Source: Candidatus Kuenenia stuttgartensis (GTDB lineage Bacteria > Planctomycetota > Brocadiia > Brocadiales > Brocadiaceae). From it: a DNA stretch of 32,000 nucleotides. Both the position numbers and the translations under genes were made by a program. The stretch spans positions 2,460,001 to 2,492,000 of the forward strand of contig NZ_LT934425.1 of NCBI RefSeq assembly GCF_900232105.1, read 5' to 3'. Below the pieces are notes generated by a model. The model was not told the DNA's origin. It did not search any database and worked only from the letters and a program-made list of their open reading frames with translations. Positions 14,930-32,000 of the stretch are shown here, piece by piece (within the stretch, counting starts at the first letter, position 1; each line of letters opens with the position of its first letter).

Positions 14930-14958
14930 TGCACCGTCTTGTGATTAGATGTTTGTAA

Positions 14959-15434: not shown

Positions 15435-15444
15435 TCAAACAAAT

Positions 15445-17169: not shown

Positions 17170-17247
17170 GCCCACTTACCTCGAATTTGAACTATTTACC
17201 CTTTGCCAGTTTTCCGCCTTACTTTTTATAAATGGGGAATGTGCTAT

Positions 17248-17511
17248 ATGCCTGTTAAATATGATATAGAAATACCAGAAAGAGTGATAAAAGCGCTTGG
17301 TTTGCGTGAAAGTGAAGTAAGTGAAACGCTAAAAAAAGAACTTTCAGTTTATTTTTTTGAAAAAAAACTTTTAAGTTTTGGTCAGGCAAGACAATTTTCA
17401 GGGTTATCAGTATGGGACTTTCTGGAATTTTTAAGAGAAAGGAAAATCCCTTTGCATTATGATTTGGCTGAGTATGAGGAAGATTTAGAAACAATCAGGG
17501 AATTATCATAA
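17248..17511 (+). CDS. UPF0175-family antitoxin
   Basis: MPVKYDIEIPERVIKALGLRESEVSETLKKELSVYFFEKKLLSFGQARQFSGLSVWDFLEFLRERKIP has the typical UPF0175 layout. Its stop overlaps the toxin ATG (TAATG). I prefer the ATG at 17248 to the track start at 17203. Confidence 0.7.
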   Translation: MPVKYDIEIPERVIKALGLRESEVSETLKKELSVYFFEKKLLSFGQARQFSGLSVWDFLEFLRERKIPLHYDLAEYEEDLETIRELS

Positions 17512-18014: not shown

Positions 18015-18146
18015 TTTTTAATAAATCTTGCATGCTTGTCAGCTTGTCAGCCTGTTTTTGACCTTTGACCGCTCACGGCCAAACTGCCAACTGTTTATTA
18101 TCTAATCAACCATTTAACGTCTTAACGACTCAACCGTTCTAATGCA
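17988..18146 (+). repeat. R element copy 3 (overlaps 3' end of the PIN-like gene)
   Basis: Same sequence as copies 1 and 2, with an extra 8 nt (GGCCAAAC). Confidence 0.8.
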
Positions 18147-18174
18147 GACCTCTGACCTCTGACTTCAGGCCTCT
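18147..18174 (+). repeat. heptamer array, 4 units, immediately upstream of the four-helix-bundle gene
   Basis: gacctct gacctct gacttca ggcctct. Confidence 0.75.
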
Positions 18175-18181
18175 GGATAAT

Positions 18182-18562
18182 ATGAAAATTGAATCAGCTA
18201 AGGATTTGCGGGTGTATCAGAAAGCTTATGCACTTGCTATGGAACTGTTTGAACTTTCGAAAGAATTCCACTGTGAGGAGCGTTTTGCTCTTACAGATCA
18301 AATACGCCGATCATCAAGATCAGTCTGCGCCAACCTGAGAGAAGCTTGGGCAAAAAGGCGTTACCCTGCACATTTTGTAAGCAAACTTACAGACTGTGAC
18401 GGAGAAAACAGTGAAACAGATACATGGTTAGACTTTGCACGAGACTGCAACTACATTACGGACAAACATCATAAGGAGCTGACGTCTATTTGCTTAGAAG
18501 TTGGAAAAATGCTTGGGAGTATGATCAATAATCCAAAGCCGTTTCTGATCTCCGCCCCCTGA
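18182..18562 (+). CDS. four-helix-bundle protein (23S rRNA intervening-sequence protein family, Avd-like)
   Basis: 126 aa: LRVYQKAYALAMELFELSKEF..EERFALTDQIRRSSRSVCANLREAWAKRRYPAHFVSKL..DGENSETDTWLDFA is the family signature as I know it. The last 5 codons and the stop lie inside the downstream heptamer array. Confidence 0.8.
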   Translation: MKIESAKDLRVYQKAYALAMELFELSKEFHCEERFALTDQIRRSSRSVCANLREAWAKRRYPAHFVSKLTDCDGENSETDTWLDFARDCNYITDKHHKELTSICLEVGKMLGSMINNPKPFLISAP

Positions 18563-18630
18563 TCTCTGACCTCTGACCTCTGACCTCTGGTCTCTGGTCT
18601 CTGATCTCTGACTTCTGACCTATGACCTCA
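18547..18630 (+). repeat. heptamer array, 12 units (consensus GACCTCT)
   Basis: gatctcc gccccct gatctct gacctct gacctct gacctct ggtctct ggtctct gatctct gacttct gacctat gacctca, counted by hand. Confidence 0.9.
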
Positions 18631-18681
18631 GATTAAAACCAATTAACGAATCAAAAGATAAATGTTACAGAAAGAGCATCA

Positions 18682-19686
18682 ATGGAAATAATCAATCCAC
18701 ACGACAAATTTTTCAAAGAGACCTTTTCCATAAAGAAAAATGTAATCGATTTTCTCCAGGGAACATTTCCCCCTGAAATTTTGAAAAAGCTGGATTTATC
18801 CACTTTAACACAGGATAATAATTCATATATCGACGAAGAACTAAAAGAACATTTCTCAGACATTGTATATACCTGTTTCTGTAAAGACAAAGAACTCCGG
18901 ATAACCCTTTTATTCGAGCACAAGAGTTATGCCGTAGCATGTCCGTATCTACAGTTGATGAAATACCTTTTAAAGATATGGGAAGCAAACAGCAAGCAGT
19001 CACAAAGGCTCATGCCGGTAATTCCGGTGATATTGTATCATGGCAAAGATGCGTGGAAAGTCAGGAGATTCAGAGACTATTTTGAAGGGATAGACGAGGT
19101 ATTCTTTAGATTTATACCGGAATTTGAATATCTGCTGACGGATCTGAGTTGTTATAGTAATGAGGAAATAAAGGACAGGGCATTTAGAAGGGTATCCCTT
19201 CAAATAACCATGTTATTAATGAGGAATATATATAATGACAAAATTCTGGGAGACAAGCTAAAGGCATTCTTTGAAATAGGGAAGCAGTATTTTGAAGAGG
19301 GTGAAGGATTAAAGTTTCTGGAAAGTGTGATCAGGTATTTGTACTATGCGTCGGATATAGAGGAAGAAAGGGTAATAGATACCCTAAAAGAGATATCGGA
19401 AGAAGGAGGTAGATTAAGCATGACAATAGCAGCCAGATTAATAGAAAAAGGCAAAATGGCCGGTAGGGCGGAAGGTAAAGTAGAAGGTAAAGTAGAAGGT
19501 AGAGTAGAAGGCCGGATAGAAGGCCTAAAAGAAGCGATAGAGATTGGTTTGGAGCTAAAGTATGGCGTTGAAGGTTTAAGGCTTCTGGAACGTATCAGTA
19601 AAATAGTAGTAATAGAGAAACTGGAGGCAATAAAAGAGGCGGTGAAAATATCAAAGAATATGGAAGAAATTGAAAAATTGCTCTAA
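18682..19686 (+). CDS. Rpn-family recombination-promoting nuclease / putative transposase (PD-(D/E)xK, YhgA-like)
   Basis: 334 aa. N-terminal PHDKFFKETF, then FSDIVY...LLFEHKS (the D...E-x-K nuclease core). The C-terminal helical region has EGKVEGKVEGRVEGRIEG repeats typical of this family. Confidence 0.8.
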   Translation: MEIINPHDKFFKETFSIKKNVIDFLQGTFPPEILKKLDLSTLTQDNNSYIDEELKEHFSDIVYTCFCKDKELRITLLFEHKSYAVACPYLQLMKYLLKIWEANSKQSQRLMPVIPVILYHGKDAWKVRRFRDYFEGIDEVFFRFIPEFEYLLTDLSCYSNEEIKDRAFRRVSLQITMLLMRNIYNDKILGDKLKAFFEIGKQYFEEGEGLKFLESVIRYLYYASDIEEERVIDTLKEISEEGGRLSMTIAARLIEKGKMAGRAEGKVEGKVEGRVEGRIEGLKEAIEIGLELKYGVEGLRLLERISKIVVIEKLEAIKEAVKISKNMEEIEKLL

Positions 19687-19937
19687 CATGAAAAACTCAT
19701 ATCGTAACAATTTAGCTTGCCGCAGAGAACGCTGGGACTTCGTCGTGAGCTCAATCGAACAATCGCAGAGGTTTTTAGGAGATAAAAACAGAAAATTATG
19801 CAGGTGCCCACGGGTATTTGTTTTCTCCGTGTTATCCGCGCCCTTTACGGTGAACTATTACCTCATATCTTATCCATGAAATATGGAAAAGAACTAAATT
19901 CACTGGTCAACTCATTAGAAAAAAAGACTCGACCGCA

Positions 19938-20007
19938 GACCTCCGACTTCTGCCCTCCGACCCCTGACTTCCGACTTCTGACTTCTAGTCTCTGCCCTCT
20001 GACTTCC
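19938..20007 (+). repeat. heptamer array, 10 degenerate units
   Basis: gacctcc gacttct gccctcc gacccct gacttcc gacttct gacttct agtctct gccctct gacttcc. Confidence 0.85.
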
Positions 20008-20095
20008 GGGTGTATCAGAAAGCTTATGCACTTGCTATGGAACTGTTTGAACTTTCGAAAGAATTCCCCTGTGAGGAGCGTTTTGCTCTTACAGA
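20007..20095 (+). pseudogene. four-helix-bundle gene fragment (codons about 10-39 only)
   Basis: CGGGTGTATCAGAAAGCTTATGCACTTGCTATGGAACTGTTTGAACTTTCGAAAGAATTCC.CTGTGAGGAGCGTTTTGCTCTTACAGA equals 18209-18297. Its 5' side abuts the heptamer array and its 3' side is cut by the small element at 20096. Confidence 0.85.
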
Positions 20096-20157
20096 GTAAC
20101 TGTTCAGCGTAAATATTATCGTTTAATACCGACTTGCTCCCAAACTCCGGTTTCTCG
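20096..20157. repeat. small insertion-type repeat, short form (partner 13002-13107)
   Basis: Starts GTAACTGTTCAGCGTA and ends AAACTCCGGTTTCTCG. It truncates the four-helix-bundle fragment. Confidence 0.6.
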
Positions 20158-20309
20158 TACATCGTTTCGTTAAAATGTGTACGTAAAAAATGTCATTGCG
20201 AGGAGTGGAGCGACGAAGCAATCTCTTGTTCCCAAAAGACTTAAGATTGCTTCGCTGTCGCTCGCAATGACGGTATCAATGTAGATATTCTAATGAAACG
20301 CTATACTAG
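20157..20309. repeat. 153-nt hairpin repeat, copy 2
   Basis: Partner of 4513-4665. The stem at 20193-20270 (TCATTGCGAG...CGACGAAGCAATCT / AGATTGCTTCG...CTCGCAATGA) pairs perfectly at both ends. Confidence 0.85.
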
Positions 20310-20453
20310 ATTTAAAAATCCAGTAGATATTAAAACTTTTGTTGCTAATGGTAAAAGGAAGGCCGAAAGCTGAACTGAAAAAGATTCCTTTTAGTTCTGG
20401 GGACACCATACATAAATTATTGACTTCATTATTAAAATAGTTAAGAGGTGTTC

Positions 20454-21290
20454 ATGTCCAGAATTGCGCATATGGTAGTTCCGGAAACGCCACATCATAT
20501 TACTCAACGAGGAAGTCGACATTTGCAGGCATTCTTCTGCGACTAGGATTGTGAGGCTACATATACTTGATGTCTCAGTGGTGTAGGCGCTGGGACATTG
20601 AAATATGTGCATATTGCTTGCTACCAAACCATGTACACCTGATTGGGGTCCGTCCTCTGGAAATGCGCTTAGTCAGGCGATTGGATAAGTGCATCGACGC
20701 TACACAAGTCGCGTAAACTTCCGGGAAGGCTGGAGAGGGCGCCTGTCACAAGGACGTTTTGCCTCTTCCTTAATAGACAAAACCCATTTGTACTTAGCCG
20801 CACGCTATGTTGAACTGAATCCGGTGAGAGCAAAATTAGTTAAGAAACTACAGGAGTACCGATGGAGTAGTGCACCGGCACACATTGCTGGGAGGTGCAT
20901 TCCCGATTTTTTGTAATTATCTGCACAATGTAACACAAGCATACTGCTTGTGATATTTAATACACAAGCTGCCTGCCTATACGGGTTGGCACAGGCATTT
21001 TGCCTGTGCGAAATACAGGCAGGAATGACTGTACCACCCTTGCTGGGAGAGATGACCGTCTTGTGCATGTAGAGCCGTTGCTTGAGATGTTTGGCAAGTG
21101 GGACGATTTTCTTACCAGCGGTCTATCGGAAGAAGAAGTCGAAGAGGTTAGATGTCATGAACGAACCGGAAGACTTCCTGGCGCTAACAGTTTTTTAGTC
21201 CAGCTTGAAAATGCCCATGGAAGAATACTCCATAAGCAAAAACCTGGCCCAAAGAGGTCTCAAAAGGAAAAGAAGCCTCTCCTGAATTAA
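20454..21290 (+). pseudogene. RAYT / IS200-like Y1 transposase, dead copy C
   Basis: Shares the TAG (FFCD*) and the adjacent 1-nt deletion with copy A. A 146-bp insertion sits at 20894-21039. The tail ...GANSFLVQLENAHGRILHKQKPGPKRSQKEKKPLLN* is intact and has no MITE. Inverted repeats at 20399-20411 and 21291-21302. Confidence 0.85.
20894..21039. mobile_element. 146-bp insertion with 9-bp target duplication TTGCTGGGA
   Basis: Direct repeats at 20885-20893 and 21040-21048; copy B has the uninterrupted site. The left end is GGTGCATTCCCGATTTTTTGT (MITE-type TIR). The right end is different, a hairpin-containing ...GCCTGTGCGAAATACAGGCAGGAATGACTGTACCACCC. Confidence 0.75.
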
Positions 21291-21330
21291 GTATGATGTC
21301 CCTGTAATTCCCAATGCTATTGCTGAACTT

Positions 21331-21552
21331 TTGAATAAAGAGCCTGAATTAAGGGAGAAATTGATAGTAGGCGCCTATATTGACGGAGAGATAAATCCTG
21401 GAAAAGCGGCAGAACTATTGGGGATTCACCCGGTTAAGCTGAGAGGGCAACTTTTATCAAAAGGCATACCTGTCAGGATAGGTGTAGAAACGATAGAAGA
21501 AATAGTAGCCGAAGGGATAGCTGCAAGAGGTACCAGGGAAAGTGCTGAATGA
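21331..21552 (+). CDS. UPF0175-like antitoxin, probably N-terminally clipped
   Basis: LIVGAYIDGEINPGKAAELLGIHPVKLRGQLLSKGIPV fits the UPF0175 HTH region. The frame is open upstream to the RAYT right end (IPNAIAELL...) with no ATG, and the track start is TTG. Confidence 0.45.
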   Translation: MNKEPELREKLIVGAYIDGEINPGKAAELLGIHPVKLRGQLLSKGIPVRIGVETIEEIVAEGIAARGTRESAE

Positions 21553-21557
21553 TACTT

Positions 21558-21748
21558 ATGGACAACAATGTCCTGTCAAACTTTGCCCTGATAGGAGAGA
21601 TAAACCTTCTACAAGACTACAGTTTGCTGAGAATGTGGATATTCAGACAGAGGAATTTTGTGAAGATATGGCTGCCAAAAAAATAGAATATGTCATAATG
21701 ATTGTAATCAACGATAGATACAGACATCGGCATATTCATGAGACATGA
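21558..21748 (+). pseudogene. PIN-like toxin 5' remnant
   Basis: MDNNVLSNFALIGEINLLQDYS resembles the first strand and helix of PIN toxins. The frame then breaks and the rest of the domain is absent. Confidence 0.3.
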
Positions 21749-21953
21749 GGGAGGAAAGATAGTATTTTTCAGGGTACCATATAAGACAAGAATTAATGAT
21801 AAATGGTGTCCTGTTGTCAGATATGATACTGCTCGTGGATTTGTACATGGGGATTTGATGAGTGTCAATGGAGATGTAAAGAAAACACCTTTATTTAATC
21901 AAGACAATAACAGTGCATTAACTTTTGCTGAAAATGATCTAAAATCTAATTGA
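21738..21953 (+). CDS. small protein of unrecognised family, possibly prematurely terminated
   Basis: 71-aa ORF (VVRYDTARGFVHGD). After TGA 21951-21953 the same frame stays open for 11 more codons to TGA 21987-21989, which overlaps the ATG of the next gene. Confidence 0.35.
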   Translation: MRHEGGKIVFFRVPYKTRINDKWCPVVRYDTARGFVHGDLMSVNGDVKKTPLFNQDNNSALTFAENDLKSN

Positions 21954-21988
21954 GAGTATTACAAAAAGAGATTTTTGGAGGAGGGGTG

Positions 21989-22267
21989 ATGTGCAAGGAA
22001 AAAGAAATGATAGAGCGCAATATTGAGCTAAGCGCTGAGTTTAGCAGGTATTTGTTTGAACATCCGGAAGTTGAAACAAAGATACCACTGGATGCAAAGG
22101 TTGTGCTTTTGCCTGAATTTGACAAAGAATTAAAGAGATTTAATCTTCAATTGGGAAAAAACATCGAAGCGGATGGTGGGCGGGTGGTATATATACTGAT
22201 CAAAAATATTCGCCCTAAGGTTTTGTCAAGAATAGAAAAAATAGAATTTGAACCTGTTGCGAATTAA
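21989..22267 (+). CDS. small protein, DUF5647-like (from memory)
   Basis: ATG at 21989 follows GGAGGAGGGG. The product MCKEKEMIERNIELSAEFSRYLFEHPEVETKIPLDAKVVLLPEFDKELKRFNLQLGK resembles that family. The track start at 21950 is less likely. Confidence 0.4.
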   Translation: MCKEKEMIERNIELSAEFSRYLFEHPEVETKIPLDAKVVLLPEFDKELKRFNLQLGKNIEADGGRVVYILIKNIRPKVLSRIEKIEFEPVAN

Positions 22268-22543: not shown

Positions 22544-22705
22544 ATGAGATGGGATGAATTTATAAGGGGAATTAAGAGGTTCTGTGGTTTTTTGCAAGAC
22601 CAGGTTGAGAAGGGGGAAAATAATCTTTTGAAATTTTGTGCCCCTTGCGTCTTTGCGTGGAACAATTTTCTCTTCCGGCTCGTTCGGGTTAGGCCATCTA
22701 AATGA
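22544..22705 (+). CDS. 53-codon ORF translationally coupled to the ABC exporter (hypothetical)
   Basis: ATG 22544 lies 8 nt after GGGGAG. Its stop TGA 22703-22705 overlaps the ABC start ATG 22702 (ATGA). The product is MRWDEFIRGIKRFCGFLQDQVEKGENNLLKFCAPCVFAWNNFLFRLVRVRPSK. There is no homology evidence. Confidence 0.2.
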   Translation: MRWDEFIRGIKRFCGFLQDQVEKGENNLLKFCAPCVFAWNNFLFRLVRVRPSK

Positions 22706-24558
22706 AAACTATTTTTTCTAAATTTTTATATTTATTTAACCGCAGAGAAAAGCTACAGATATTTGCCCTGTTTATTTTAATACTTGTAAGCGCCTTATTT
22801 GAGACATTTGGGGTGGGGCTAATGTACCCCTTTATTTCGATACTTAAAAATCCGGAAGTTATCCACTCTTATAGAATCTTGCATTGGTTTTATGTTTTCA
22901 TGGGTATGGGGTCCTTGAAAGAATTCTTAATTTGGGCTGTAATAGGATTGATTGCATTTTATTTACTCAAAAATGTCTTCCTGGTTTTATTGGCTTATGC
23001 ACAATCAAGATTCATTTATAATAAACAGATATTGTTTGCCCACCGTTTATTTGTTTTCTATCTTAATCAGCCCTATACCTTTCATGTGCAAAGGAATACC
23101 GCAGAATTATTGCATAAAATCAACGTTACGGTTTCTACGCTTTTTAGTGGTTTTCTGCTTTATGCGATAATGTTCGTGATTGAAATAATAACTACTCTGT
23201 CTATCCTTTGCCTACTCATTATATTAAAACCACTGCCGTCTATAATTGCAGTAAGCGTGTTGGGCATTATTACAATTTTTTTTTATAAGTTAATTCGGAA
23301 AAAGATCGGGAAGCTCGGTGAGATGAGGCATCATTTCGGCGAACAGATGGTCCGCTGGGTTACTCAGGGTTTGGGCGGGATAAAGGAAACCAAGGTGCTG
23401 GGGAGGGAAGGGTTCTTTGCTAATGAATACAATAAAAACAGCAAGGGATATGTTAATGCAGAAAGATTTCTCTATGTGATTAATCAACTCCCTCGCCCAT
23501 TTCTGGAGACGATATGCATTTTGAGTATGTTCCTGATAATGCTATTAATGATGGCTCAGAATAAAGATTTGGGATCGATCATACCCACATTGTCATTATT
23601 TGCAATGGCTGCTTTTCGAATCATACCATCTATGAACCGCATCTTTGCAGCCGCCACACTGATGCGCTACAACAGTTCTTCGGTTGAAATAGTTTATAAT
23701 GAACTCACTTCCTTCGATAAACATCCTGCTTCATTTGAAAGGGCGCCTGCTGATGTTATTGCAAAAACAGTGGACAAACCAAAAACTCCTGCTGTTTCCT
23801 TTCCCGCAGGAGAGTCCTTCTTTGATAATGCAATAGAGCTTAAGAACGTTTCCTATCAATATCCCAATACTGAGAAGGCTGTTCTTAACGGTATTTCGCT
23901 CGTAATTCCAAAGCACTATTCTATCGGATTTGTTGGTCCATCGGGGGCGGGTAAGACTACTCTTGTGGATGTGATTATCGGCCTGCTTACGCCAACACAT
24001 GGAGAGGTATTGGTCGATGGTAAAATTATGAAAGATAATTTATCAGATTGGCAACGCCGAATAGGTTACATTCCACAGAGCATATATCTCTCCGATGACA
24101 CCATTCGGCGGAACATAGCTTTTGGTTTGCCTGATGAACAAATCGATGAGGATCAAATCTGGTCGGTTCTTGAATCTGCGCAACTTAAGGAATTCGTTAA
24201 TAATCTACCTGATAAACTTGGTACTTTTGTAGGGGAGCGGGGCATTCGTCTTTCAGGTGGCCAACGGCAACGCATAGGTATTGCCAGGGCATTGTATCGT
24301 AATCCTGAGGTGCTGGTGATGGATGAGGGCACTGCTTCATTGGATAACGAAACGGAATGGGAAATTATGCAGACAGTAAAAAACCTACGTGGGGAAAAAA
24401 CAACAATAATTATTGCGCACCGTTTAAGTACTATAAAAAATTGCAATCTGCTTTATTTCATAAAAGATGGTACTATTACTGACTATGGGGTGTATGACGA
24501 ATTGTTCGATAAAAGCCAGGAGTTTAAATCGATGGTTATGGCAACGGAGTACAAATAG
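22702..24558 (+). CDS. ABC exporter, fused permease/ATPase (MsbA-type fold)
   Basis: 618 aa. A six-TM exporter domain is followed by an NBD with Walker A GPSGAGKTT, signature LSGGQRQR, Walker B VLVMDEGTASLD and H-loop IIIAHRL. Confidence 0.85.
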   Translation: MKTIFSKFLYLFNRREKLQIFALFILILVSALFETFGVGLMYPFISILKNPEVIHSYRILHWFYVFMGMGSLKEFLIWAVIGLIAFYLLKNVFLVLLAYAQSRFIYNKQILFAHRLFVFYLNQPYTFHVQRNTAELLHKINVTVSTLFSGFLLYAIMFVIEIITTLSILCLLIILKPLPSIIAVSVLGIITIFFYKLIRKKIGKLGEMRHHFGEQMVRWVTQGLGGIKETKVLGREGFFANEYNKNSKGYVNAERFLYVINQLPRPFLETICILSMFLIMLLMMAQNKDLGSIIPTLSLFAMAAFRIIPSMNRIFAAATLMRYNSSSVEIVYNELTSFDKHPASFERAPADVIAKTVDKPKTPAVSFPAGESFFDNAIELKNVSYQYPNTEKAVLNGISLVIPKHYSIGFVGPSGAGKTTLVDVIIGLLTPTHGEVLVDGKIMKDNLSDWQRRIGYIPQSIYLSDDTIRRNIAFGLPDEQIDEDQIWSVLESAQLKEFVNNLPDKLGTFVGERGIRLSGGQRQRIGIARALYRNPEVLVMDEGTASLDNETEWEIMQTVKNLRGEKTTIIIAHRLSTIKNCNLLYFIKDGTITDYGVYDELFDKSQEFKSMVMATEYK

Positions 24559-24563
24559 AATTC

Positions 24564-25274
24564 ATGGAGGCTATCATCTTGGCAGGTGGTTATGGCACAA
24601 GGCTTCAAAGTGTTATAAAAGATATTCCAAAACCTATGGCGGATATAAACGGCCGCCCATTTCTATCCTATCTAATGGATTATTTATTATGCCAGAATAT
24701 TCGAAAAATCCTGCTTTCTGTTGGATATAAACATGAAATTATTAAAAACTATTTTGGTTTAAGGTATAAAAATTTGGATATCGAATATGTAATAGAAGAT
24801 AAGCCTCTCGGAACTGGCGGCGCTATAAAGGAAGCGTTAAAATGGGTGGAAGGAGATGATGTTGTAGTTTTAAATGGTGATACATTTTTCTACCTTGAAC
24901 TTAAAAAATTAATTGAATTTCATCTTGCACAAGACGCAATTTTAACCATTGCAGTAAAACTTATGCATAATTTTGATAGGTACGGAACGGTGGTATTAAA
25001 AGAAGGCAAAATAATTAATTTCGAAGAAAAAACGTTTAAGGCTGCTGGCTATATAAATGGCGGAGTGTATGTTATTAAAAAAAAGATTTTTGAGTCTTTT
25101 GATATGAAAAAAGATAAATTCTCGTTTGAGATGGATTTTTTGCATAAAAATATAGAGGCAATCAAGCCAGCCGCTTTTTCTAGTGACAGTTATTTTATAG
25201 ACATTGGAATACCCGAAGATTACAAAAAAGCACAAAAAGAAATAGGGCTTATTTTTAAGGAAATAGTCGGATGA
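24564..25274 (+). CDS. hddC: sugar-1-phosphate nucleotidyltransferase, HddC-like (D-glycero-D-manno-heptose-1-P guanylyltransferase family)
   Basis: 236 aa with ILAGGYGTRL...KPM, LGTGGAI and NGDTFF motifs. ATGA overlap with the GHMP kinase gene. Confidence 0.7.
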   Translation: MEAIILAGGYGTRLQSVIKDIPKPMADINGRPFLSYLMDYLLCQNIRKILLSVGYKHEIIKNYFGLRYKNLDIEYVIEDKPLGTGGAIKEALKWVEGDDVVVLNGDTFFYLELKKLIEFHLAQDAILTIAVKLMHNFDRYGTVVLKEGKIINFEEKTFKAAGYINGGVYVIKKKIFESFDMKKDKFSFEMDFLHKNIEAIKPAAFSSDSYFIDIGIPEDYKKAQKEIGLIFKEIVG

Positions 25275-26263
25275 TTATTTCACGAACACCGCACCGGATT
25301 TCATTTTTTGGAGGCGGAACAGATTATCCAGCATGGTATTTGGAAAATGGGGGAAAAGTTTTAGGTGTGGCAATTGATAAATATTGCTATATAACCTGCC
25401 GAAAGCTTCCCCCCTTTTTTAGTCATAAGCACAGAATTGTATATTCTAAAGTGGAAACGGTAAATCAACTGAAGGAAATTCAGCATCCTTCTGTAAGAGA
25501 AACCTTAAAATACCTAAATATCAAAAATGGGTTAGAAATTCATCACGATGGAGATATTCCTGCTCGCTCTGGTATGGGTTCAAGCTCTGCCTTTACCGTA
25601 GGACTTCTTAATACTCTATACGCGCTCGAAGGAAGAGTCGTAACGAAAGAGAGCCTTTATAAAGAAGCAATACACATTGAACAGAATTTAATAAAAGAAA
25701 ATGTGGGATCCCAGGATCAGGCTTGGGCTGCTTGTGGAGGACTGAACATTATTGAATTTCTACAAAATGGAGAGATTTTAGTTAAGCCAATAATAATGCG
25801 AGAAAGTCTTTTGAGAAGTTTTGAAAACAAGTTCATGCTTTTTTTTACATGGTTATCAAGGAATTCTTCAGAAGTAGCAAAAGAGCAGATCGAGAATACG
25901 CAGAAAAACAGGAACGAGTTAACAGAAATGACTGGGATAGTCAATGCGGCGTATAAAATACTTGTTTCAGGGAAAAGTGATTTTGCTGAGTTTGGAAAAC
26001 TTTTAAATGAATCCTGGAGATTAAAAAAACGGCTTTCTACAAAAATCACCAATGGTGAAATAGATGCTATTTATGAAAAAGCGCTTAAAAATGGGGCTGT
26101 TGGTGGTAAATTGCTTGGGGCGGGTAGTGGAGGTTTTATCCTTTTTTATGTAGAACCTGAAAATCAAGCTAGGGTAAAAGAGGCATTAAAAGGATATTTG
26201 CACGTTCCCTTTAAGTTTGATTTTTCGGGATCTGAAATAATGGTGTATCAACCTGGTTTTTAA
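25271..26263 (+). CDS. hddA: GHMP-family sugar kinase, HddA-like (D-glycero-D-manno-heptose-7-P kinase family)
   Basis: 330 aa with RTPHRISFFGGGTDYP, PARSGMGSSSAF, GSQDQAWAACGG and GAGSGGF motifs. Confidence 0.7.
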   Translation: MIISRTPHRISFFGGGTDYPAWYLENGGKVLGVAIDKYCYITCRKLPPFFSHKHRIVYSKVETVNQLKEIQHPSVRETLKYLNIKNGLEIHHDGDIPARSGMGSSSAFTVGLLNTLYALEGRVVTKESLYKEAIHIEQNLIKENVGSQDQAWAACGGLNIIEFLQNGEILVKPIIMRESLLRSFENKFMLFFTWLSRNSSEVAKEQIENTQKNRNELTEMTGIVNAAYKILVSGKSDFAEFGKLLNESWRLKKRLSTKITNGEIDAIYEKALKNGAVGGKLLGAGSGGFILFYVEPENQARVKEALKGYLHVPFKFDFSGSEIMVYQPGF

Positions 26264-26285
26264 GTTAAGAATAAGGAAAAATATA

Positions 26286-27446
26286 ATGAGATACGAACTT
26301 ACCAGTTCAACATGGAGTGAAGAGGAAAAGCAAACCATACGAGAGATTATTGAGTCTGGAATGTATACCATGGGAAGGCATGTAAAGGAGTTTGAAGAGA
26401 AATTTGCAAAATATTTTGGTATGAAATACGCCGTTATGGTAAATTCCGGCTCATCAGCGAATCTTATTGCGGTGGCTTCATTTTTTTATAAAAAAGAAAA
26501 CCCCCTCAAAAGAGGTGATGAAGTAATCGTACCATGTATTTCATGGGCAACTACTTTTCATCCACTTCAACAATACGGCTTAAAACTGAAATTCGTTGAT
26601 ATTGATTTGAACACATTAAATTATGATATAGATGAGCTTAAAAAAGCCTTAACTAAAGATACCAAAATGATAGTTGCGGTAAGTATTTTAGGGAATCCCT
26701 GTCCGTTTGATGAAATAACAAAATTATGTGAAGAAAATAATATCATTCTTTTTGAGGATAATTGCGAATCAATGGGCGCTAAGTTTCATGGTAAGTATAC
26801 AGGGACATTTGGACTCGTGAATACCTTCAGCACGTTCTTTTCACATCATATTTCAACTATGGAAGGGGGGCTTGTTTTAACCAATGATAAAGAAATTTAC
26901 AATCTCCTGAAATCAATCAGAAACCACGGCTGGATAAGGGGGCAGGATGCAGATAGTCCGATTTTCGAGAGGAGAGGGGACGATTTTTTTGAGGCATACA
27001 GATTCATTCTTCCTGGTTATAATGTAAGACCAGGAGAAATCCATGGCGCTGCAGGCAGAAAACAGTTAGATAAATTAGAAAGTTTTGTGAAGACCAGAAG
27101 AGAGAATGCAGGACATTTTGTGCAACTTTTTGGCAATGATGAAAGATTTATAATACAAAAAGAAATTGGAGAAAGTTCGTGGTTCTGTTTTACAATGATT
27201 ATTAATCCAAAACTAAATATTGATAGAAAAAAAGTATTGCAGAAACTAACGGCAGCAAATATCGAACATCGTATCATTACCGGTGGAAACTTTTTAAGGC
27301 ATGATGTAATTAAATATTATGATTACGAGGTCGTAAGTAGAAAAAATGCCGATATAGCCCATGACTACGGATTTTTTGTTGGGAATCATCCTTACGATAT
27401 AAGAGATAAAATACATTATTTGTATAAAACATTGGAACAGATTTAA
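26286..27446 (+). CDS. PLP-dependent sugar 3-dehydratase, ColD-like (GDP-4-keto-6-deoxymannose 3-dehydratase family; DegT/DnrJ/EryC1 fold)
   Basis: 386 aa, colinear with E. coli ColD as I remember it (SSTW...MYTMG..V..FE..FAKYFG.KYAVMV.SGS.ANL, LQQYGLK.KFVDID.NTLN, EDNCESMGA, LPGYNVRP, GESSWF.F). The active-site region is FSTFFSHHISTMEGG, with His where aminotransferases of this fold carry the Schiff-base Lys. Confidence 0.8.
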   Translation: MRYELTSSTWSEEEKQTIREIIESGMYTMGRHVKEFEEKFAKYFGMKYAVMVNSGSSANLIAVASFFYKKENPLKRGDEVIVPCISWATTFHPLQQYGLKLKFVDIDLNTLNYDIDELKKALTKDTKMIVAVSILGNPCPFDEITKLCEENNIILFEDNCESMGAKFHGKYTGTFGLVNTFSTFFSHHISTMEGGLVLTNDKEIYNLLKSIRNHGWIRGQDADSPIFERRGDDFFEAYRFILPGYNVRPGEIHGAAGRKQLDKLESFVKTRRENAGHFVQLFGNDERFIIQKEIGESSWFCFTMIINPKLNIDRKKVLQKLTAANIEHRIITGGNFLRHDVIKYYDYEVVSRKNADIAHDYGFFVGNHPYDIRDKIHYLYKTLEQI

Positions 27447-27460
27447 AGGAGAAATAGTAA

Positions 27461-28399
27461 ATGAGTTACAATATATTAGTTACCGGCGGAGCTGGGTATT
27501 TGGGTTCAGTACTGGTTCCCGAATTGTTAAAATTAGGACACAAAGTAACTGTTTTAGACAATTTTATGTTCGGTCAAAGCCCTTTGCTGGACTGTTGCTC
27601 AAGTGAAAATTTTAATGTGGTAAGAGGAGATGCAAGAGATGAGGATATTCTAAAACTTCTTCTGGAAAAAGCTGATTATATTATACCTTTAGCGGCATTA
27701 GTAGGCGCCCCACTTTGCAGCAGAGACAAAATAGGAACGATAACCACTATTCGAGATGCAGCGGCTTCCCTGGTTAAGCTTGCCTCAAAAGAACAGAGAT
27801 TCATCATACCTACAACGAACAGCGGTTATGGCATTGGACAAAAAGGGGTGTATTGTACTGAAGAAACTCCTTTGAATCCCATTACACTATATGGAAAGGC
27901 TAAGGTAGAAGCGGAAAAGATTGTACTCGATAAAGGAAATTCAATAAGTTTCAGGTTAGCAACGGTATTTGGCACGTCTCCCAGGATGCGACTTGACTTA
28001 TTGGTAAATGATTTTACCTACAGGGCAGTCAAAGATAGATTTGTAGTGATTTTTGAAGGTCATTTTAAACGAAACTACATCCATATTCGGGACGTAGCAA
28101 GGGCATTTATACATGCCGTAAATAATTTTGATACGATGAAAAATGAGCCTTATAACGTAGGCTTGTCGGATGCAAATCTATCAAAACTTGAACTCTGTGC
28201 AAAGATAAAAGAGTATGTTCCGGATTTTGTATATTTAGAGTCGCCGATAGGTGAAGACCCTGATAAAAGAGATTATATTGTATCAAATGAAAAAATTGAA
28301 AAAACAGGATTTAATCCTGTCTATTCGCTTGAAATGGGAATAAAAGAGCTTATTAAAGGATACAAGATTATTACGAATAGTAAGTACTCAAACGTATGA
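27461..28399 (+). CDS. NAD(P)-dependent sugar epimerase/reductase (extended SDR)
   Basis: 312 aa with the Rossmann motif VTGGAGYLGS and the catalytic YGKAK (YxxxK). Confidence 0.75.
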   Translation: MSYNILVTGGAGYLGSVLVPELLKLGHKVTVLDNFMFGQSPLLDCCSSENFNVVRGDARDEDILKLLLEKADYIIPLAALVGAPLCSRDKIGTITTIRDAAASLVKLASKEQRFIIPTTNSGYGIGQKGVYCTEETPLNPITLYGKAKVEAEKIVLDKGNSISFRLATVFGTSPRMRLDLLVNDFTYRAVKDRFVVIFEGHFKRNYIHIRDVARAFIHAVNNFDTMKNEPYNVGLSDANLSKLELCAKIKEYVPDFVYLESPIGEDPDKRDYIVSNEKIEKTGFNPVYSLEMGIKELIKGYKIITNSKYSNV

Positions 28400-28457
28400 A
28401 AATTAGAAAATGAGACACAGTCAATGCGAATTTTGGAAAAGAAAACCTATTTAAGAA

Positions 28458-28820
28458 ATGGGGGTTAGAAAGATGACCATTTTAAAGGCATTAACAGGTA
28501 GTATTGAGAATTTGCCGTCTTTGCGCCTGCATATATTGCTAACAAAGGAGGATGATGTTATAGTTGCGCGGTGTTTGGATTTTTCGGTTTCAAGCCATGG
28601 GAATAGTGAAACTGAGGCGCTTAACTCTTTAAGCGATAGTATAAAGGACTATATTGGCCATGCTATAGAACATGATGCATTAGATGAAATTATCGATCCA
28701 GACGAAGATGAGTTTTGGGAAGCATTTAGAAAATCAGAATTACAGGATGAGTTGCTAAATATCAAGGAGAACATTGATATTTTAAAAACTAAGAAAATAA
28801 ACGAAGTAACCTATGCCTAA
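28458..28820 (+). CDS. HicB-like antitoxin
   Basis: LHILLTKEDDVIVARCLDFSVSSHGNSETEALNSLSDSIKDYI fits the HicB N-terminal fold pattern. It overlaps the next ORF by 8 nt. An alternative start is the ATG at 28473. Confidence 0.5.
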   Translation: MGVRKMTILKALTGSIENLPSLRLHILLTKEDDVIVARCLDFSVSSHGNSETEALNSLSDSIKDYIGHAIEHDALDEIIDPDEDEFWEAFRKSELQDELLNIKENIDILKTKKINEVTYA

Positions 28821-29034
28821 AGCCCTTGAACTAAGAAAGGTTATTGAACTACTAAAAAATTATGGAATTGAATTTGACTCAAAAAGTGGCGGCAGGCATT
28901 CTGGGAAATTTATAAAAATGGGGAAATCTTTTCCCGTTAAGGCGCATGGCATGAAAACAACAATATTGCCGTATGCGTTAAAAGGACTGATAAAGAAATT
29001 TGAACTTCCTTCTGATATCTTTGATAGAAAATAA
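28813..29034 (+). CDS. HicA-like toxin
   Basis: 73 aa: LRKVIELLKNYGIEFDSKSGGRHSGKFIKMGKSFPVKAHG..ILPYALKGLIKKFELP parallels HicA (LIKLLEK.GF...Q.GSH....HP......VP.HG...L..G.L..IL+QAGL). Confidence 0.5.
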   Translation: MPKALELRKVIELLKNYGIEFDSKSGGRHSGKFIKMGKSFPVKAHGMKTTILPYALKGLIKKFELPSDIFDRK

Positions 29035-29036
29035 TT

Positions 29037-29978
29037 ATGAATAAAGATTCAAAAATCTATTTGGCTGGACATACTGGCCTATTAGGCTCTGCGTTACTAA
29101 AAAGATTGAAATCAGAAGGTTATTCAAATATCGTTATGCGAACTCATACTGAGCTTGATTTAACAAGGCAAGAATCTGTTGATGAATTTTTTAAGAATGA
29201 ACAACCGGAGTATGTATTTTTGTGCGCCGGACTGACAGGAGGTATTATTGCAAATAAGACATATCCTGCAACCTTCATGCATACGAATATAGCAATCCAG
29301 GACAATGTTTTTGAAGCAGTTCAAAAATACGGGGTTCAGCACTTAGTGTTTTATGGTTCGTCATGTGTGTATCCAAAAAATTGTCCGCAGCCCATAAAAG
29401 AAGAATATTTATTGACTGGTGAAATAGAAGAAACCAGTGAGGCTTATGCAGCAGCGAAAATTGCAGGCATAATTGCTTGTAAGTCGTATAACAATCAATA
29501 TAAAACAAACCGATTCATTGTCCTGATTCCCAATTCAATGTATGGTCCAAACGATAATTTTGACCTGGAGAATTCCCATGTGCTTTCTGCCTTAATAAGA
29601 AGATTTTATGAGGCAAAGACAGAAGGAAGAAACAGAATAACTCTTTGGGGCAGTGGGAATCCGCGAAGGGAGTTTATGTTTAGTGATGATGTTGCTGATG
29701 CTTCCGTTTTTGCCATGAAAAATGTAGAAAGACTTCAAAATACACATTACAATATAGGAACTGGAATTGATTATTCAATAAAAGAGCTTGCTGAAATTAT
29801 AGCAAAAGTTGTAGGGTTTAAGGGTAAGATTGAATGGGATACAACAAGACCAGATGGTATCCAGAGAAAACTCTTGGATAGTTCAAGGTTTTATAGTCTG
29901 GAATGGAAGCCATTTACTGCGATTAAAGATGGACTGAAAATAACTTATGAGTGGTTTAAAAATATCCAAAAACAGTAA
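29037..29978 (+). CDS. fcl: GDP-4-keto-6-deoxy-sugar 3,5-epimerase/4-reductase, Fcl/ColC-like
   Basis: 313 aa: IYLAGHTGLLGSA, ELDL, GGIIANKTYPATF, GSSCVYPK, YAAAKIAG, NSHVLSALIRRF, WGSGNPRREFMFSDD, RPDG..RKLLD. It is colinear with E. coli Fcl as I remember it. Confidence 0.8.
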   Translation: MNKDSKIYLAGHTGLLGSALLKRLKSEGYSNIVMRTHTELDLTRQESVDEFFKNEQPEYVFLCAGLTGGIIANKTYPATFMHTNIAIQDNVFEAVQKYGVQHLVFYGSSCVYPKNCPQPIKEEYLLTGEIEETSEAYAAAKIAGIIACKSYNNQYKTNRFIVLIPNSMYGPNDNFDLENSHVLSALIRRFYEAKTEGRNRITLWGSGNPRREFMFSDDVADASVFAMKNVERLQNTHYNIGTGIDYSIKELAEIIAKVVGFKGKIEWDTTRPDGIQRKLLDSSRFYSLEWKPFTAIKDGLKITYEWFKNIQKQ

Positions 29979-30819
29979 GGATAATATACCTAAAGAAGAA
30001 TCAAAAAATTTGATCGAATTTTTAAAAAATAAAGCCTTATGGGTGCGTAAAGAGACCTTGAATATTCACAGGATAGCACAGGAAACAAGACTGGCTTCCT
30101 CTTTATCTGCTGTGGAGATATTTGTGGCTTTGTTTTATGGTAGGATTCTAAATTTTGATCCCAAAAATACCCTATGGGGAAATAGGGACAGATTTATTAT
30201 CAGTAAGGGTCATGGTTCAATTTCATTGTATCCGGTACTTGCAGATTTGGGATATTTTGATATGCAGGAATTGAAACGGGTGTGCAAAGAGGGTTCTTTT
30301 CTCGGAGCAATTCCGGATACTATAATCCCCGGATACGAGACAATAAACGGCTCTTTAGGACACGGTCTTGGGGTTGCGTGCGGTATTTCCCTTGCTTTGA
30401 AAAGAAAAAACAAAAGTGAAGAAGTTTTTGTACTTCTTGGTGATGGTGAATTATACGAGGGTTCGGTATGGGAAGCAGTCATGTTTGCAGGGGCGCATAA
30501 ATTGGATAATCTGGTATTAATAATAGATAACAATAAAATTTGTATGCTTGATTATTGTAAAAATATACTGGATTTAGAACCTCTTAGCGAGAAGTTCAAG
30601 ATGTTTAGATGGATGGTTAGAGCAGTTGATGGGCACGACATTAATCAATTATATAAGTCCTTAAAAGAATTAAAAGAGAGTAAAGATAACAAACCAAAAT
30701 TATTGATAGCTAGTACTGTAAAAGGAAAGGGTATACCAAGCCTTGAAAATGACCCCTTGAGTCATATAAAAAACATAAAACCTGACGAAATTGACAAAGC
30801 AATAGAGGAATTAAAATGA
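29947..30819 (+). CDS. transketolase, N-terminal (ThDP-binding) subunit
   Basis: 290 aa with GHGSISLYP, GSLGHGLGVACG and LLGDGELYEGSVWEA (GDG..E ThDP motif). Confidence 0.85.
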   Translation: MSGLKISKNSKDNIPKEESKNLIEFLKNKALWVRKETLNIHRIAQETRLASSLSAVEIFVALFYGRILNFDPKNTLWGNRDRFIISKGHGSISLYPVLADLGYFDMQELKRVCKEGSFLGAIPDTIIPGYETINGSLGHGLGVACGISLALKRKNKSEEVFVLLGDGELYEGSVWEAVMFAGAHKLDNLVLIIDNNKICMLDYCKNILDLEPLSEKFKMFRWMVRAVDGHDINQLYKSLKELKESKDNKPKLLIASTVKGKGIPSLENDPLSHIKNIKPDEIDKAIEELK

Positions 30820-31778
30820 TTACAGAGAGAAAGAGCATGAGGGATGTCTTTATAGAACAGATTTATCATCGTATGTCTGATAACAGCTCAATCTTTTTTC
30901 TCTCTGCTGATTTTGGTTCACCGAAGCTTGATAAACTGAGAGAGGATTTTAGTGACAGATTTATAAATGTTGGTATTGCAGAGCAGAACCTAATAAATGT
31001 CTCGACAGGTTTAGCGTTGGAAGGGTTTACTGTGTATGCCTATGCTATTGCACCATTTTTGATAATGAGGGCTTATGAACAGATAAGAAATAACCTCTCT
31101 CTGCTTTCCCATACTCATAAGGTAAATGTAAACTTGGTGGGAGTTGGCGCAGGCTTGAGCTACGATGTATCAGGACCAACGCACCACAGCCTCGAAGATA
31201 TCAGTATAATAAGAACCTTACCCAACCTAAGCATTTTTTCTCCCAGCGATTGTTTACTCGCAGAGAAGTTTGTGGATTATTCAATAGAACACAAAAGCCC
31301 GAAATATATCAGGTTTGACGGTAAGCCATTGCCGGTTATTTATGGAAACACGAAGAGTTTGGATATACAGATCGGATTTTTTGAACTGACAAAGGGCGAC
31401 AATGTATGTTTGGTTTCAACGGGCTATATGACGCATACAGCCCTGAAGGTAGTTGAGAAATTGACCAAGGAAAATGTTTTTATCGGGCTTGTTGATGTTT
31501 TTCTGATAAAACCGCTTTATGAGGATTTACTTTTTGAGGCACTGAGTAAATATAAATATGTGATAACTCTTGAAGAGGCATTTATAAATAAAGGTGGCCT
31601 GGACAGTCTGGTATCAGGCATTTTAAATAATAAAGAAGCAAGCATTAAATTAAAAAAAATGGGATTTAGCGATAAATATCTTTTTGAGATGGGCGGAAGG
31701 GATTGCATGCACAAGTTAAATGGACTGGATGAAGACAGTATTGTCAAAGATATAAAAGACTTGCTGAGAAAGATATAA
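30816..31778 (+). CDS. transketolase, C-terminal (pyrimidine-binding) subunit
   Basis: 320 aa with FINVGIAEQN and GPTHHSLEDISIIRTLPN. ATGA overlap with the N-terminal subunit gene. Confidence 0.85.
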   Translation: MITERKSMRDVFIEQIYHRMSDNSSIFFLSADFGSPKLDKLREDFSDRFINVGIAEQNLINVSTGLALEGFTVYAYAIAPFLIMRAYEQIRNNLSLLSHTHKVNVNLVGVGAGLSYDVSGPTHHSLEDISIIRTLPNLSIFSPSDCLLAEKFVDYSIEHKSPKYIRFDGKPLPVIYGNTKSLDIQIGFFELTKGDNVCLVSTGYMTHTALKVVEKLTKENVFIGLVDVFLIKPLYEDLLFEALSKYKYVITLEEAFINKGGLDSLVSGILNNKEASIKLKKMGFSDKYLFEMGGRDCMHKLNGLDEDSIVKDIKDLLRKI

Positions 31779-31786: not shown

Positions 31787-32000
31787 ATGGATATAGTCTT
31801 AATTAATCCTGGTGACAGGAAGCAGGTTTATCAAAACCTTGGGGAAGACTACGCTGCAATTGAACCTCCGTTCTGGATTGCTGTAATAGGTGCTTATCTT
31901 AGAAATAATGGGTTTGATGTGGCAGTTATTGATGCAAACGCTGAAAATATTTCTCCACAAGAAACTGCAGAAAAAGCAAATAGATTACAACCGTTATTGT
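31787..32000 (+). CDS. B12-binding-domain radical SAM enzyme, N-terminus only (runs off window end)
   Basis: MDIVLINPGD...EPPFWIAVIGAYLRNNGFDVAVIDANAENISPQETAEK is the usual start of class B radical SAM proteins (cobalamin-binding Rossmann domain). The CxxxCxxC region is not yet reached. Confidence 0.45.
   Translation, partial: MDIVLINPGDRKQVYQNLGEDYAAIEPPFWIAVIGAYLRNNGFDVAVIDANAENISPQETAEKANRLQPLL

Follow-up and report, generated by a model that had tools for sequence, protein, structure and literature searches.

Here, we examine a set of closely spaced genes that begins at position 24564 of a 32,000-nucleotide stretch of the Candidatus (Ca.) Kuenenia stuttgartiensis genome (hereafter, the window) and runs past its end at 32000. 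A sequence-only reading of the window had assigned five of these genes to a GDP-linked 3,6-dideoxy sugar, built on a heptose or colitose-like scaffold. We find a different reading to be better supported: sequence and gene context suggest a natural, widespread pathway to GDP-3-deoxy-4-keto-heptose, coupled to a remodelled transketolase and a B12-binding radical S-adenosylmethionine (SAM) enzyme. In our preferred model, which we hold to be about as likely as not, everything from 24564 to past the window end belongs to a single operon for a modified GDP-heptose, destined for a surface glycan of this organism. The five open reading frames (ORFs) recognised earlier are real and lie on the plus strand, and the first two are indeed coupled by an ATGA overlap (25271-25274). 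But the gene set as first described, 24564-29978, ends too early; a transketolase-like gene pair and a B12 radical SAM gene continue the putative operon. The genes at issue, with lengths in amino acids (aa), are:

24564-25274, plus strand: HddC-like nucleotidyltransferase (NTP_transferase, 236 aa; NCBIfam HddC)
25271-26263, plus strand: HddA-like GHMP kinase (330 aa; HddA is the best NCBIfam model)
26286-27446, plus strand: ColD-like protein of the DegT family (386 aa; full-length match to ColD, 2gms)
27461-28399, plus strand: extended short-chain dehydrogenase/reductase (SDR), the candidate C4-dehydrogenase (312 aa; PDB match 6VO6/6VO8)
29037-29978, plus strand: Fcl/ColC-like SDR (313 aa; NCBIfam Fcl)
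29947-30819, plus strand: split transketolase-like N-terminal (PP-domain) subunit, TK-N (Pfam Transketolase_N)
30816-31778, plus strand: split transketolase-like C-terminal (Pyr and C-domain) subunit, TK-C (Pfam Transket_pyr and Transketolase_C)
31787-32000, plus strand: B12-binding radical SAM gene, first 71 codons of a 486-aa protein cut by the window end (Pfam, on the full protein from locus L001)

Much of the argument rests on how these genes travel together. A profile scan of one genome per species, made with an alignment of the ColD-like protein, yielded 71 loci, whose ORFs were searched with the window proteins and whose additional gene families were named by NCBIfam; genome counts refer to the 35 loci that belong to the ColD clade of the window and have enough flanking DNA. 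Metagenome contigs were scanned with a TK-C alignment, giving at least 559 relatives, and counts were taken from the 16 loci flanked by 7 kb or more on both sides. A syntenic block of hddC, hddA, the colD-like gene, the C4-dehydrogenase gene, (the fcl-like gene), TK-N, TK-C and the B12 radical SAM gene recurs in Nitrospirota, Elusimicrobiota, Planctomycetota, Deltaproteobacteria/Thermodesulfobacteriota, Campylobacterota (Sulfurimonas, Sulfuricurvum, Helicobacter and Arcobacter) and a Roizmanbacteria metagenome-assembled genome (MAG). The block is also present in Rhodocyclaceae, with its gene order rearranged, and Vicinamibacterales MAGs carry just the genes for HddA, the ColD-like protein, the C4-dehydrogenase and the B12 radical SAM enzyme, with no transketolase-like pair. 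Cultured organisms that have the cassette include Uliginosibacterium gangwonense DSM 18521 and Niveibacterium sp. 24ML. Among the 35 genome loci, HddA is encoded in 33, the C4-dehydrogenase in 30, a two-subunit thiamine diphosphate (ThDP) enzyme in 27, HddC in 24, Fcl in 23, the B12 radical SAM enzyme in 22 (after TK-C), L-2-hydroxyglutarate oxidase in 13, Gmd and GmhB in 7 each, and GmhA in 4. The TK-C-anchored metagenome loci give 15 of 16 each for the C4-dehydrogenase, HddA and a DegT-family protein, 14 for the radical SAM enzyme, 13 for HddC and 9 for Fcl. Across the cassettes, then, the radical SAM enzyme is usual and Fcl occurs in about 60%. Because these two independently anchored sets of counts agree, we regard the transketolase-like enzyme as part of one conserved functional unit with the steps that form GDP-heptose, oxidise it at C4 and dehydrate it at C3.

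The key enzyme in this reading is the extended SDR. The sequence-only reading recognised the SDR family correctly but overlooked its specific identity, to which one very strong match points: residues 1-311 align with PDB entries 6VO6/6VO8 at 393.7 bits, and the next PDB match scores 78 bits. We take 6VO6/6VO8 to be Cj1427 of Campylobacter jejuni NCTC 11168, a GDP-heptose C4-dehydrogenase. The Tyr-x3-Lys motif is kept as YGKAK. The segment TNSGYG aligns with TSE(V/L)YG of Gmd-type 4,6-dehydratases from the same loci, and Ser stands at the Glu column in 48 of 48 members; in Gmd, this Glu is the dehydration base. These observations suggest that the SDR is probably a Cj1427-type, NAD-dependent GDP-heptose C4-dehydrogenase, which would generate a 4-keto sugar without loss of O6. 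Oxidation of C4 without removal of O6 would in turn lead to a 3-deoxy sugar that retains its 6-hydroxyl, rather than to the 3,6-dideoxy product first proposed. Nor, for this locus at least, would the 4,6-dehydratase that had been called required be missing, because the SDR would supply the 4-keto group while O6 stays in place.

Work on C. jejuni provides the biochemical precedent. Cj1427 oxidises C4 of GDP-manno-heptose, and its tightly held NADH is re-oxidised by alpha-ketoglutarate, giving L-2-hydroxyglutarate (PMC10680097). Together with the C3-dehydratase of serotype HS:5 in vitro, it yields GDP-D-glycero-3-deoxy-4-keto-heptose (m/z 616.08), and the resulting GDP-3-deoxyheptoses were termed novel by Raushel's group in 2023 (PMC10680097). 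In the same species, serotypes that have the Cj1427 type alone retain the 6-hydroxyl (PMC10680097). The window contains no L-2-hydroxyglutarate oxidase gene. Such a gene is syntenic in the 13 relatives counted above (NCBIfam 312 bits, cut-off 299), and in many it lies immediately upstream of hddC (e.g. L039:6037-7209). This fits the alpha-ketoglutarate-coupled mechanism, because the oxidase would recycle the product of the Cj1427-type SDR and regenerate alpha-ketoglutarate in vivo.

The ColD-like protein would then act on the 4-keto sugar. It matches E. coli O55 ColD (2gms) from end to end at 438.7 bits, with 51.8% global identity, and is nearer to ColD than to the [2Fe-2S] E1 (RfbH/DdhC) dehydrase 3bcx (169.8 bits; 386 aa vs 437 aa). 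The protein carries FFSHHISTMEGG, and the first His of this motif lines up with a position that has been mutated to Asn in 3b8x, a variant chain of ColD. We take the mutated residue to be His188, at the position of the pyridoxal phosphate (PLP) lysine in aminotransferases; Lys-type members of the DegT family align K at this column. The colinearity with ColD, the replacement of the PLP lysine by His and the C3 deoxygenation put forward in the sequence-only reading all hold up, and ColD-type deoxygenation of a GDP-4-keto-sugar at C3, dependent on pyridoxamine phosphate/PLP, is supported by homology. In a neighbour-joining tree, the ColD proteins of the colitose type (which share 58-63% identity with the E. 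coli protein and are encoded in every case with Gmd and Fcl, never with HddA or the C4-dehydrogenase) form a clade separate from that of the window (57-83% identical to the window protein, and linked to HddA, the C4-dehydrogenase and the ThDP enzyme). As judged by context, the ColD-like protein would work like ColD yet is not a colitose enzyme, since there is no Gmd at the locus and its clade is linked to HddA and the C4-dehydrogenase. The colitose-like scaffold that had been offered as an option is unlikely for the same reason.

Members of two further DegT-family subfamilies, 26-33% identical to the ColD-like protein of the window, occur within the same heptose/transketolase-like cassettes in metagenome loci L086-L156. 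They carry His at the PLP-lysine column, in the motifs YYAHHMSTIEGG and YVAHIITTIEGG (e.g. L143:10984-12156 and L092:14033-15235). The DegT-family proteins of the 15 counted metagenome loci fall into three divergent subfamilies, and all have His at the lysine position (13 by pattern match and 2 by inspection of the alignment); only three DegT members among the metagenome loci have Lys there. The divergent His-type subfamilies probably represent C3-dehydratases of lineages yet to be characterised. Since they are encoded in TK-C-anchored loci that seemed to lack ColD, we dropped the idea that such loci can do without C3 deoxygenation.

A heptose scaffold based on HddC and HddA, as the sequence-only reading had suggested, is likewise supported. 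The HddC-like protein scores 270.6 bits against NCBIfam HddC (NF049965; cut-off 300, next model 148.9) and 182.5 bits against PDB 5xhw. The HddA-like kinase scores 147.3 bits against NF049969 (cut-off 600), and its top PDB matches are the heptose kinases 3k85, 4usm and 4n3o (121-134 bits). In related cassettes, NCBIfam identifies gmhA (about 201-203 bits) and gmhB (167 bits) beside the hddC/hddA-like pair, as in L015, L016, L033, L039, L047 and several metagenome loci. Because gmhA and gmhB share the cassette with this pair in several relatives, the evidence supports a GDP-linked heptose as the scaffold. The HddC-like protein would be the sugar-1-phosphate guanylyltransferase that forms GDP-heptose, and the HddA-like protein is a probable heptose-7-phosphate 1-kinase. 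A tblastn search with Gmd, GmhA and GmhB representatives from related loci found none in the window, as had been noted before, and none in the 10 kb downstream, where extension of the locus had been suggested as a check. GmhA and GmhB would be encoded elsewhere in the Kuenenia genome. Since the HddC, HddA, Fcl and transketolase assignments all miss their curated cut-offs, these labels are to be read at the level of the family.

The remainder of the cassette is less familiar. TK-N and TK-C match the PDB split transketolase 6yak and 6yaj at 171 and 130 bits, respectively, and transketolase is the best NCBIfam model for both (223.6 and 151.5 bits; cut-off 488). We aligned the cassette family with human transketolase, whose numbering is used here, and with the split transketolase of Carboxydothermus hydrogenoformans (6yak/6yaj). 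The ThDP residues Asp155 and Asn185 (GDG and NN motifs) and the activating Glu366 are invariant in the family, and His77, His258, Arg471 and His428 are also kept. Five other residues, all of them retained in C. hydrogenoformans, are replaced: His37 by Arg and His110 by Ile (27 of 31 members in each case), His416 by Gly and Asp424 by Ser (30 of 30 in each case), and Arg474 by Gly, Ala or Ser (27 of 30). From transketolase enzymology, we take His416 and Arg474 to bind the substrate phosphate, Asp424 to bind the C2 hydroxyl of the aldose acceptor, and His37 and His110 to bind hydroxyls of the donor and the intermediate. With its ThDP residues retained and five positions of substrate binding or catalysis consistently substituted, the enzyme appears to be no normal transketolase, but a carboligase or lyase that depends on ThDP and whose substrate pair is another one.

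What this substrate pair might be is suggested by related chemistry. In yersiniose biosynthesis, YerE adds a pyruvate-derived two-carbon unit to CDP-3,6-dideoxy-4-keto-glucose; such ThDP attack on a 3-deoxy-4-keto nucleotide sugar is shown for this case, and erwiniose, caryophyllose and gastriose are proposed to arise likewise (PMC9306805). [quoted passage not shown] A 2025 review counts 13 candidates of this split-gene type, every one from Streptomycetes, with none characterised in vitro (PMC12247030). In 5 of the 35 genome loci, a pair resembling pyruvate dehydrogenase E1 (PDH-E1) alpha/beta stands in for the transketolase-like pair. We infer branching at C4 from four points: the yersiniose-type chemistry, the E1 alpha/beta replacement, the proposed split transketolases, and the lack of any other evident route for the C4 ketone in cassettes without Fcl.

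PDH-E1 alpha/beta-like pairs (~306 aa each), which replace or accompany the transketolase-like pair, were seen in L019, L026, L037, L042 and L066-L070. A gene of the DJ-1/PfpI family often adjoins them.

The Fcl/ColC-like protein scores 401.8 bits against NCBIfam Fcl (NF047922; cut-off 500), 312 bits against PDB 7anh and 304 bits against E. coli GFS. Its Ser-Tyr-Lys triad, Cys110 and His181 (GSSC, AYAAAK and NSHV) are kept in 25 of 25 cassette members; the Cys and His correspond to the epimerisation residues of E. coli GFS. The position of this Cys holds Thr in 7anh, which we take to be a C. jejuni reductase. With all of its catalytic residues in place, the protein's earlier assignment as an epimerase-reductase stands, and a role as a GDP-4-keto-sugar epimerase/reductase is supported by homology. 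Of the related cassettes with a transketolase-like pair, roughly one in three lacks the fcl-like gene. As for the radical SAM enzyme, the full protein, taken from L001, contains B12-binding (PF02310, 68.2 bits) and Radical_SAM (PF04055, 70.8 bits) domains, and no specific NCBIfam subfamily model reached its cut-off. Its reaction would most likely be the C-methylation of an unactivated carbon.

Taken together, these assignments suggest the following pathway. After formation of the GDP-heptose, the Cj1427-type SDR would oxidise C4 to give GDP-D-glycero-4-keto-heptose with O6 retained, and the ColD-type enzyme would take off the C3 hydroxyl to give GDP-D-glycero-3-deoxy-4-keto-heptose. Homology and synteny make these first three steps, taken jointly, quite probable. 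The ThDP enzyme might then join a two-carbon acyl unit to the C4 ketone, leaving a tertiary alcohol as YerE does in yersiniose, with a 2-oxo acid such as pyruvate or hydroxypyruvate as donor. The Fcl-like SDR could epimerise C5 and/or reduce the branch carbonyl, as YerF does, or on a side route reduce C4 to give a plain, unbranched 3-deoxyheptose. Finally, the B12 radical SAM enzyme may tailor an unactivated carbon, most likely by C-methylation, and the PglK-like ABC (ATP-binding cassette) exporter encoded just upstream would flip the lipid-linked glycan. For the steps from branching to radical SAM tailoring, we consider the chance to fall a little short of even. The model as a whole (a 3-deoxyheptose route with two-carbon branching at C4 and radical SAM tailoring, assigned from sequence, synteny and analogy) seems to us about as apt to be right as wrong. 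More tentatively, the product may belong to a sugar class not yet described, comprising GDP-3-deoxyheptoses with a ThDP-installed C4 branch and a radical SAM modification, in surface glycans of at least eight phyla.

Several points weigh against this model. The equation of 6VO6 with Cj1427 is an assumption, and the database title reads only 'Putative sugar-nucleotide epimerase/dehydratease'. Both the kinase (147 vs 600 bits) and the guanylyltransferase (270.6 vs 300) fall under their NCBIfam equivalog cut-offs, and gmhA and gmhB lie outside the 42 kb examined. A Gmd-type dehydratase (NCBIfam 478 bits, exceeding the cut-off of 415) is encoded beside the C4-dehydrogenase in 7 of the 35 relatives, so 6-deoxy variants exist. 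Canonical transketolases take aldehyde acceptors, and none of the split type is so far known to use a keto sugar in vitro. The Fcl-like protein keeps all of the residues of a C4 epimerase-reductase, which is a better fit to reduction of the C4 ketone than to a C4 branch; were it to reduce this ketone, it would compete with the ThDP enzyme for one intermediate. The best PDB match of the radical SAM protein is a weak one, to the diol dehydratase AprD4 (6fd2, 59.7 bits), and methylation is a guess. Finally, synteny speaks for shared function and is silent on the order of reactions.

How far do these points favour other explanations? The full set of GFS catalytic residues in the Fcl-like protein, together with the GDP-3-deoxyheptoses obtained in vitro by the same three-enzyme logic (PMC10680097), would be expected if the product were a plain GDP-3-deoxyheptose, and the transketolase-like pair and radical SAM enzyme served another glycan step or substrate. 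We regard this as unlikely. The transketolase-like pair is linked to the C4-dehydrogenase and HddA as tightly as ColD is (27/35; 15/16), is translationally coupled to Fcl, persists without Fcl in about a third of the cassettes that keep it, and lacks sugar-phosphate binding residues.

Somewhat less likely still is the model of the sequence-only reading, in which the product is a GDP-3,6-dideoxyheptose, as in C. jejuni HS:5, and the 4,6-dehydratase is encoded elsewhere in the genome. The precedent it invoked does exist (PMC10440746), Gmd-type genes adjoin the C4-dehydrogenase gene in the 7 related cassettes mentioned above, and a 174.09-Da residue of the Kuenenia S-layer (PMC5088730) is, by our arithmetic, isobaric with the mono-methylated form, C8H14O4. 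Yet no Gmd homologue was found in the window or the following 10 kb, the operon's own C4-oxidising enzyme would make a 4,6-dehydratase unnecessary, and the 6-hydroxyl is retained in those C. jejuni serotypes with the Cj1427 type alone (PMC10680097).

To a similarly low degree, we entertain chain extension. Here the C4-dehydrogenase, ColD and Fcl would produce GDP-3-deoxyheptose, Fcl keeping its canonical role; an AprD4-like radical SAM enzyme would act on the C6-C7 diol to give an aldehyde or ketone, and the transketolase-like enzyme would add a two-carbon unit at the new carbonyl, forming a C9 deoxy sugar. This scheme accommodates the top PDB match of the radical SAM protein and the usual preference of transketolases for aldehydes. 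It is weakened by the faintness of the AprD4 similarity, by a B12-binding domain typical of methylases, and by the lack of a radical SAM gene in about a third of the cassettes that have the transketolase-like pair; the E1 alpha/beta-type replacements point to two-carbon branching at a ring ketone (PMC12247030).

Ordinary colitose (GDP-3,6-dideoxy-L-xylo-hexose), made from GDP-mannose by ColD and ColC with the kinase and transferase unrelated, would explain the high scores to ColD (438.7 bits) and E. coli GFS (304 bits), but is very improbable given that the window protein clusters with heptose-linked members, apart from the colitose-type clade, and that neither Gmd nor ManC is present. A normal split transketolase that raises the supply of sedoheptulose-7-phosphate, the precursor of all heptoses, has in its favour the top NCBIfam model for both subunits, but was rejected on active-site residues and seems barely credible: both scores are far under the cut-off of 488, and the family as a whole has substitutions at two of the four positions that bind phosphate, at the Asp that binds the acceptor and at two catalytic His, all of which 6yak/6yaj keeps.

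The preferred reading, a branched GDP-3-deoxyheptose, has clear relatives among known systems. The C. jejuni capsular GDP-heptose pathways comprise GmhA/HddA/GmhB/HddC, the Cj1427 C4-dehydrogenase, the HS:5 C3-dehydratase and Cj1428-type C4-reductases, and the HddC-, HddA-, ColD-type and Fcl-like families and a 6VO6 relative are all found here. In C. jejuni, however, the C3-dehydratase naturally follows a 4,6-dehydratase, giving 3,6-dideoxy sugars (PMC10440746), whereas in the cassette it is paired with a C4-dehydrogenase; the combination that was an artificial mix in the C. jejuni work is a natural, conserved pairing in the cassette. The C. jejuni loci are not described as having a ThDP or B12 radical SAM enzyme, both of which the cassette contains, and the cassette's Fcl-like protein keeps the epimerisation Cys that is Thr in 7anh, taken here to be a C. 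jejuni reductase. With the colitose pathway (Gmd, ColD and ColC, in E. coli O55 and Yersinia pseudotuberculosis), the cassette shares the C3-dehydratase fold, the His in place of Lys and an Fcl-family partner; it differs in its scaffold (heptose vs mannose), in the source of the 4-keto group (a dehydrogenase vs Gmd) and in its separate ColD clade.

The proposed 3-deoxy-4-keto sugar, ThDP-dependent acyl transfer to C4 and subsequent reduction recall yersiniose biosynthesis (E1/E3, YerE and YerF), and the pair that replaces the transketolase-like subunits in some related cassettes resembles AviB1/AviB2-type E1 alpha/beta enzymes. Unlike yersiniose, the cassette would use a GDP-heptose rather than a CDP- or dTDP-hexose, a member of the transketolase rather than the YerE decarboxylase family, and an additional B12 radical SAM enzyme. 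Likened by description only, the split transketolases of the miharamycin and amipurimycin clusters are also encoded by two genes beside a keto-sugar-forming oxidoreductase, with a ketone acceptor proposed (PMC12247030). Those belong to nucleoside-antibiotic clusters of Streptomycetes, whereas the cassette occurs in surface-glycan loci of many phyla, with its at least 559 metagenome relatives. By analogy, the system may work like a hybrid, in which heptose modification as in C. jejuni meets branching of the yersiniose/AviB type. In the literature, we found no described pathway with this combination of parts, whether a transketolase and a radical SAM enzyme with GDP-heptose, or a transketolase with hddA/hddC.

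If the assignments are correct, the locus and its many relatives suggest that the O6-retaining GDP-3-deoxyheptose route, whose products were novel in vitro in 2023, is in wide natural use. The L-2-hydroxyglutarate oxidase found in synteny would demonstrate that cells make use of the Cj1427 mechanism with its coupling to alpha-ketoglutarate, and the transketolase-like pair would represent the first large family, outside the actinomycetes, of transketolase-type carboligases whose substrate is a nucleotide keto sugar. Coupling of a remodelled transketolase to a radical SAM enzyme offers a testable, possibly new, entry to carbon-carbon bond formation on nucleotide sugars. The genes are candidates for the unusual, partly unidentified sugars in the S-layer or lipopolysaccharide glycans of anammox bacteria, and the cassette may provide a new building block for glycoengineering.

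It is worth asking whether the product has already been seen. The S-layer O-glycan of K. stuttgartiensis contains a residue of 174.09 Da, read as dimethyl-deoxyhexose 'or something else' (PMC5088730). This mass (C8H14O4) is that of a 3,6-dideoxyheptose bearing a methyl group, or of a sugar of the yersiniose type, and mismatches a 3-deoxyheptose with or without a two-carbon branch. The Kuenenia species representative in the one-genome-per-species scan did not return the locus, and surface genes vary among Kuenenia strains (PMC7709395). For these reasons we claim no connection between the residue and the locus, and treat it as a loose lead.

Turning to the architecture of the locus, all long ORFs from 22702 to the end of the window lie on the plus strand and are closely spaced. 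In addition to the hddC-like/hddA-like overlap, a second ATGA overlap joins TK-N and TK-C (30816-30819), the fcl-like and TK-N genes share 32 nucleotides (nt), and the radical SAM gene starts 8 nt past the stop of TK-C. The translation of its window portion is identical to L001:10972-11184; contigs with identical genes occur in assemblies GCA_022180985.1 and GCA_900232175.1, and the ColD-like ORF has a counterpart of 99% protein identity in a Ca. Kuenenia stuttgartiensis MAG. Scans of the window for promoters and terminators gave nothing above shuffled sequences to mark the ends of an operon, and Rfam and tRNA scans of the window gave no matches. Two further features adjoin or interrupt the set:

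22702-24558, plus strand: PglK/MsbA-like ABC exporter, fused permease and ATPase (Pfam ABC_membrane and ABC_tran)
28458-28820 and 28813-29034, plus strand: two small overlapping ORFs of 120 aa and 73 aa (weak DUF7387 and weak HicA_toxin matches)

The exporter gene stops 5 nt upstream of the hddC-like gene. Its product scores 335 bits against NCBIfam PglK, far under the cut-off of 1000, and homologues turn up repeatedly in related loci; it is a probable flippase for a lipid-linked glycan, providing context outside sugar synthesis. The matches of the two small ORFs are both under cut-off. Because the pair is confined to the Kuenenia contigs L001-L005 and occurs in no other cassette examined, it is probably an inserted toxin-antitoxin-like unit outside the pathway.

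In one of these contigs, L002 (GCA_900232175.1, OCTL01000101.1), the ABC exporter, hddC-like and hddA-like genes at 821-4377 are each in 2-3 pieces, and the downstream genes are intact. The breaks could be either assembly indels or true pseudogenisation in that Kuenenia strain. In several other cassettes (L033:7945-8787, and also L035, L039, L047 and L011), the colD-like and C4-dehydrogenase genes are separated by one that encodes a 280-aa TIM-barrel protein resembling xylose isomerase (Pfam AP_endonuc_2, 35.9 bits). This protein was seen in Campylobacterota and a Roizmanbacteria MAG, and may be a pathway isomerase or epimerase.

Upstream, the window has few long ORFs from 7000 to 22000, a stretch with ATP synthase genes (424-4444) on one side and the glycan locus on the other. 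Judged by eye, this region includes transposase-like ORFs at 9465-10403 and 15845-16480 (minus strand) and PIN-like ORFs at 12174-12635 and 17511-18014. The sugar locus thus appears to adjoin a mobile-element-rich, probably variable region. Finally, a second sugar pathway follows the operon, ~3-8 kb past the window end (L001:14938-19714). Its genes encode a SPASM radical SAM protein, a short NeuB-like synthase, a CMP-sugar-type cytidylyltransferase, a class III aminotransferase, a glyoxalase-fold protein and a methyltransferase, a set that suggests a modified nonulosonic-acid-like sugar.

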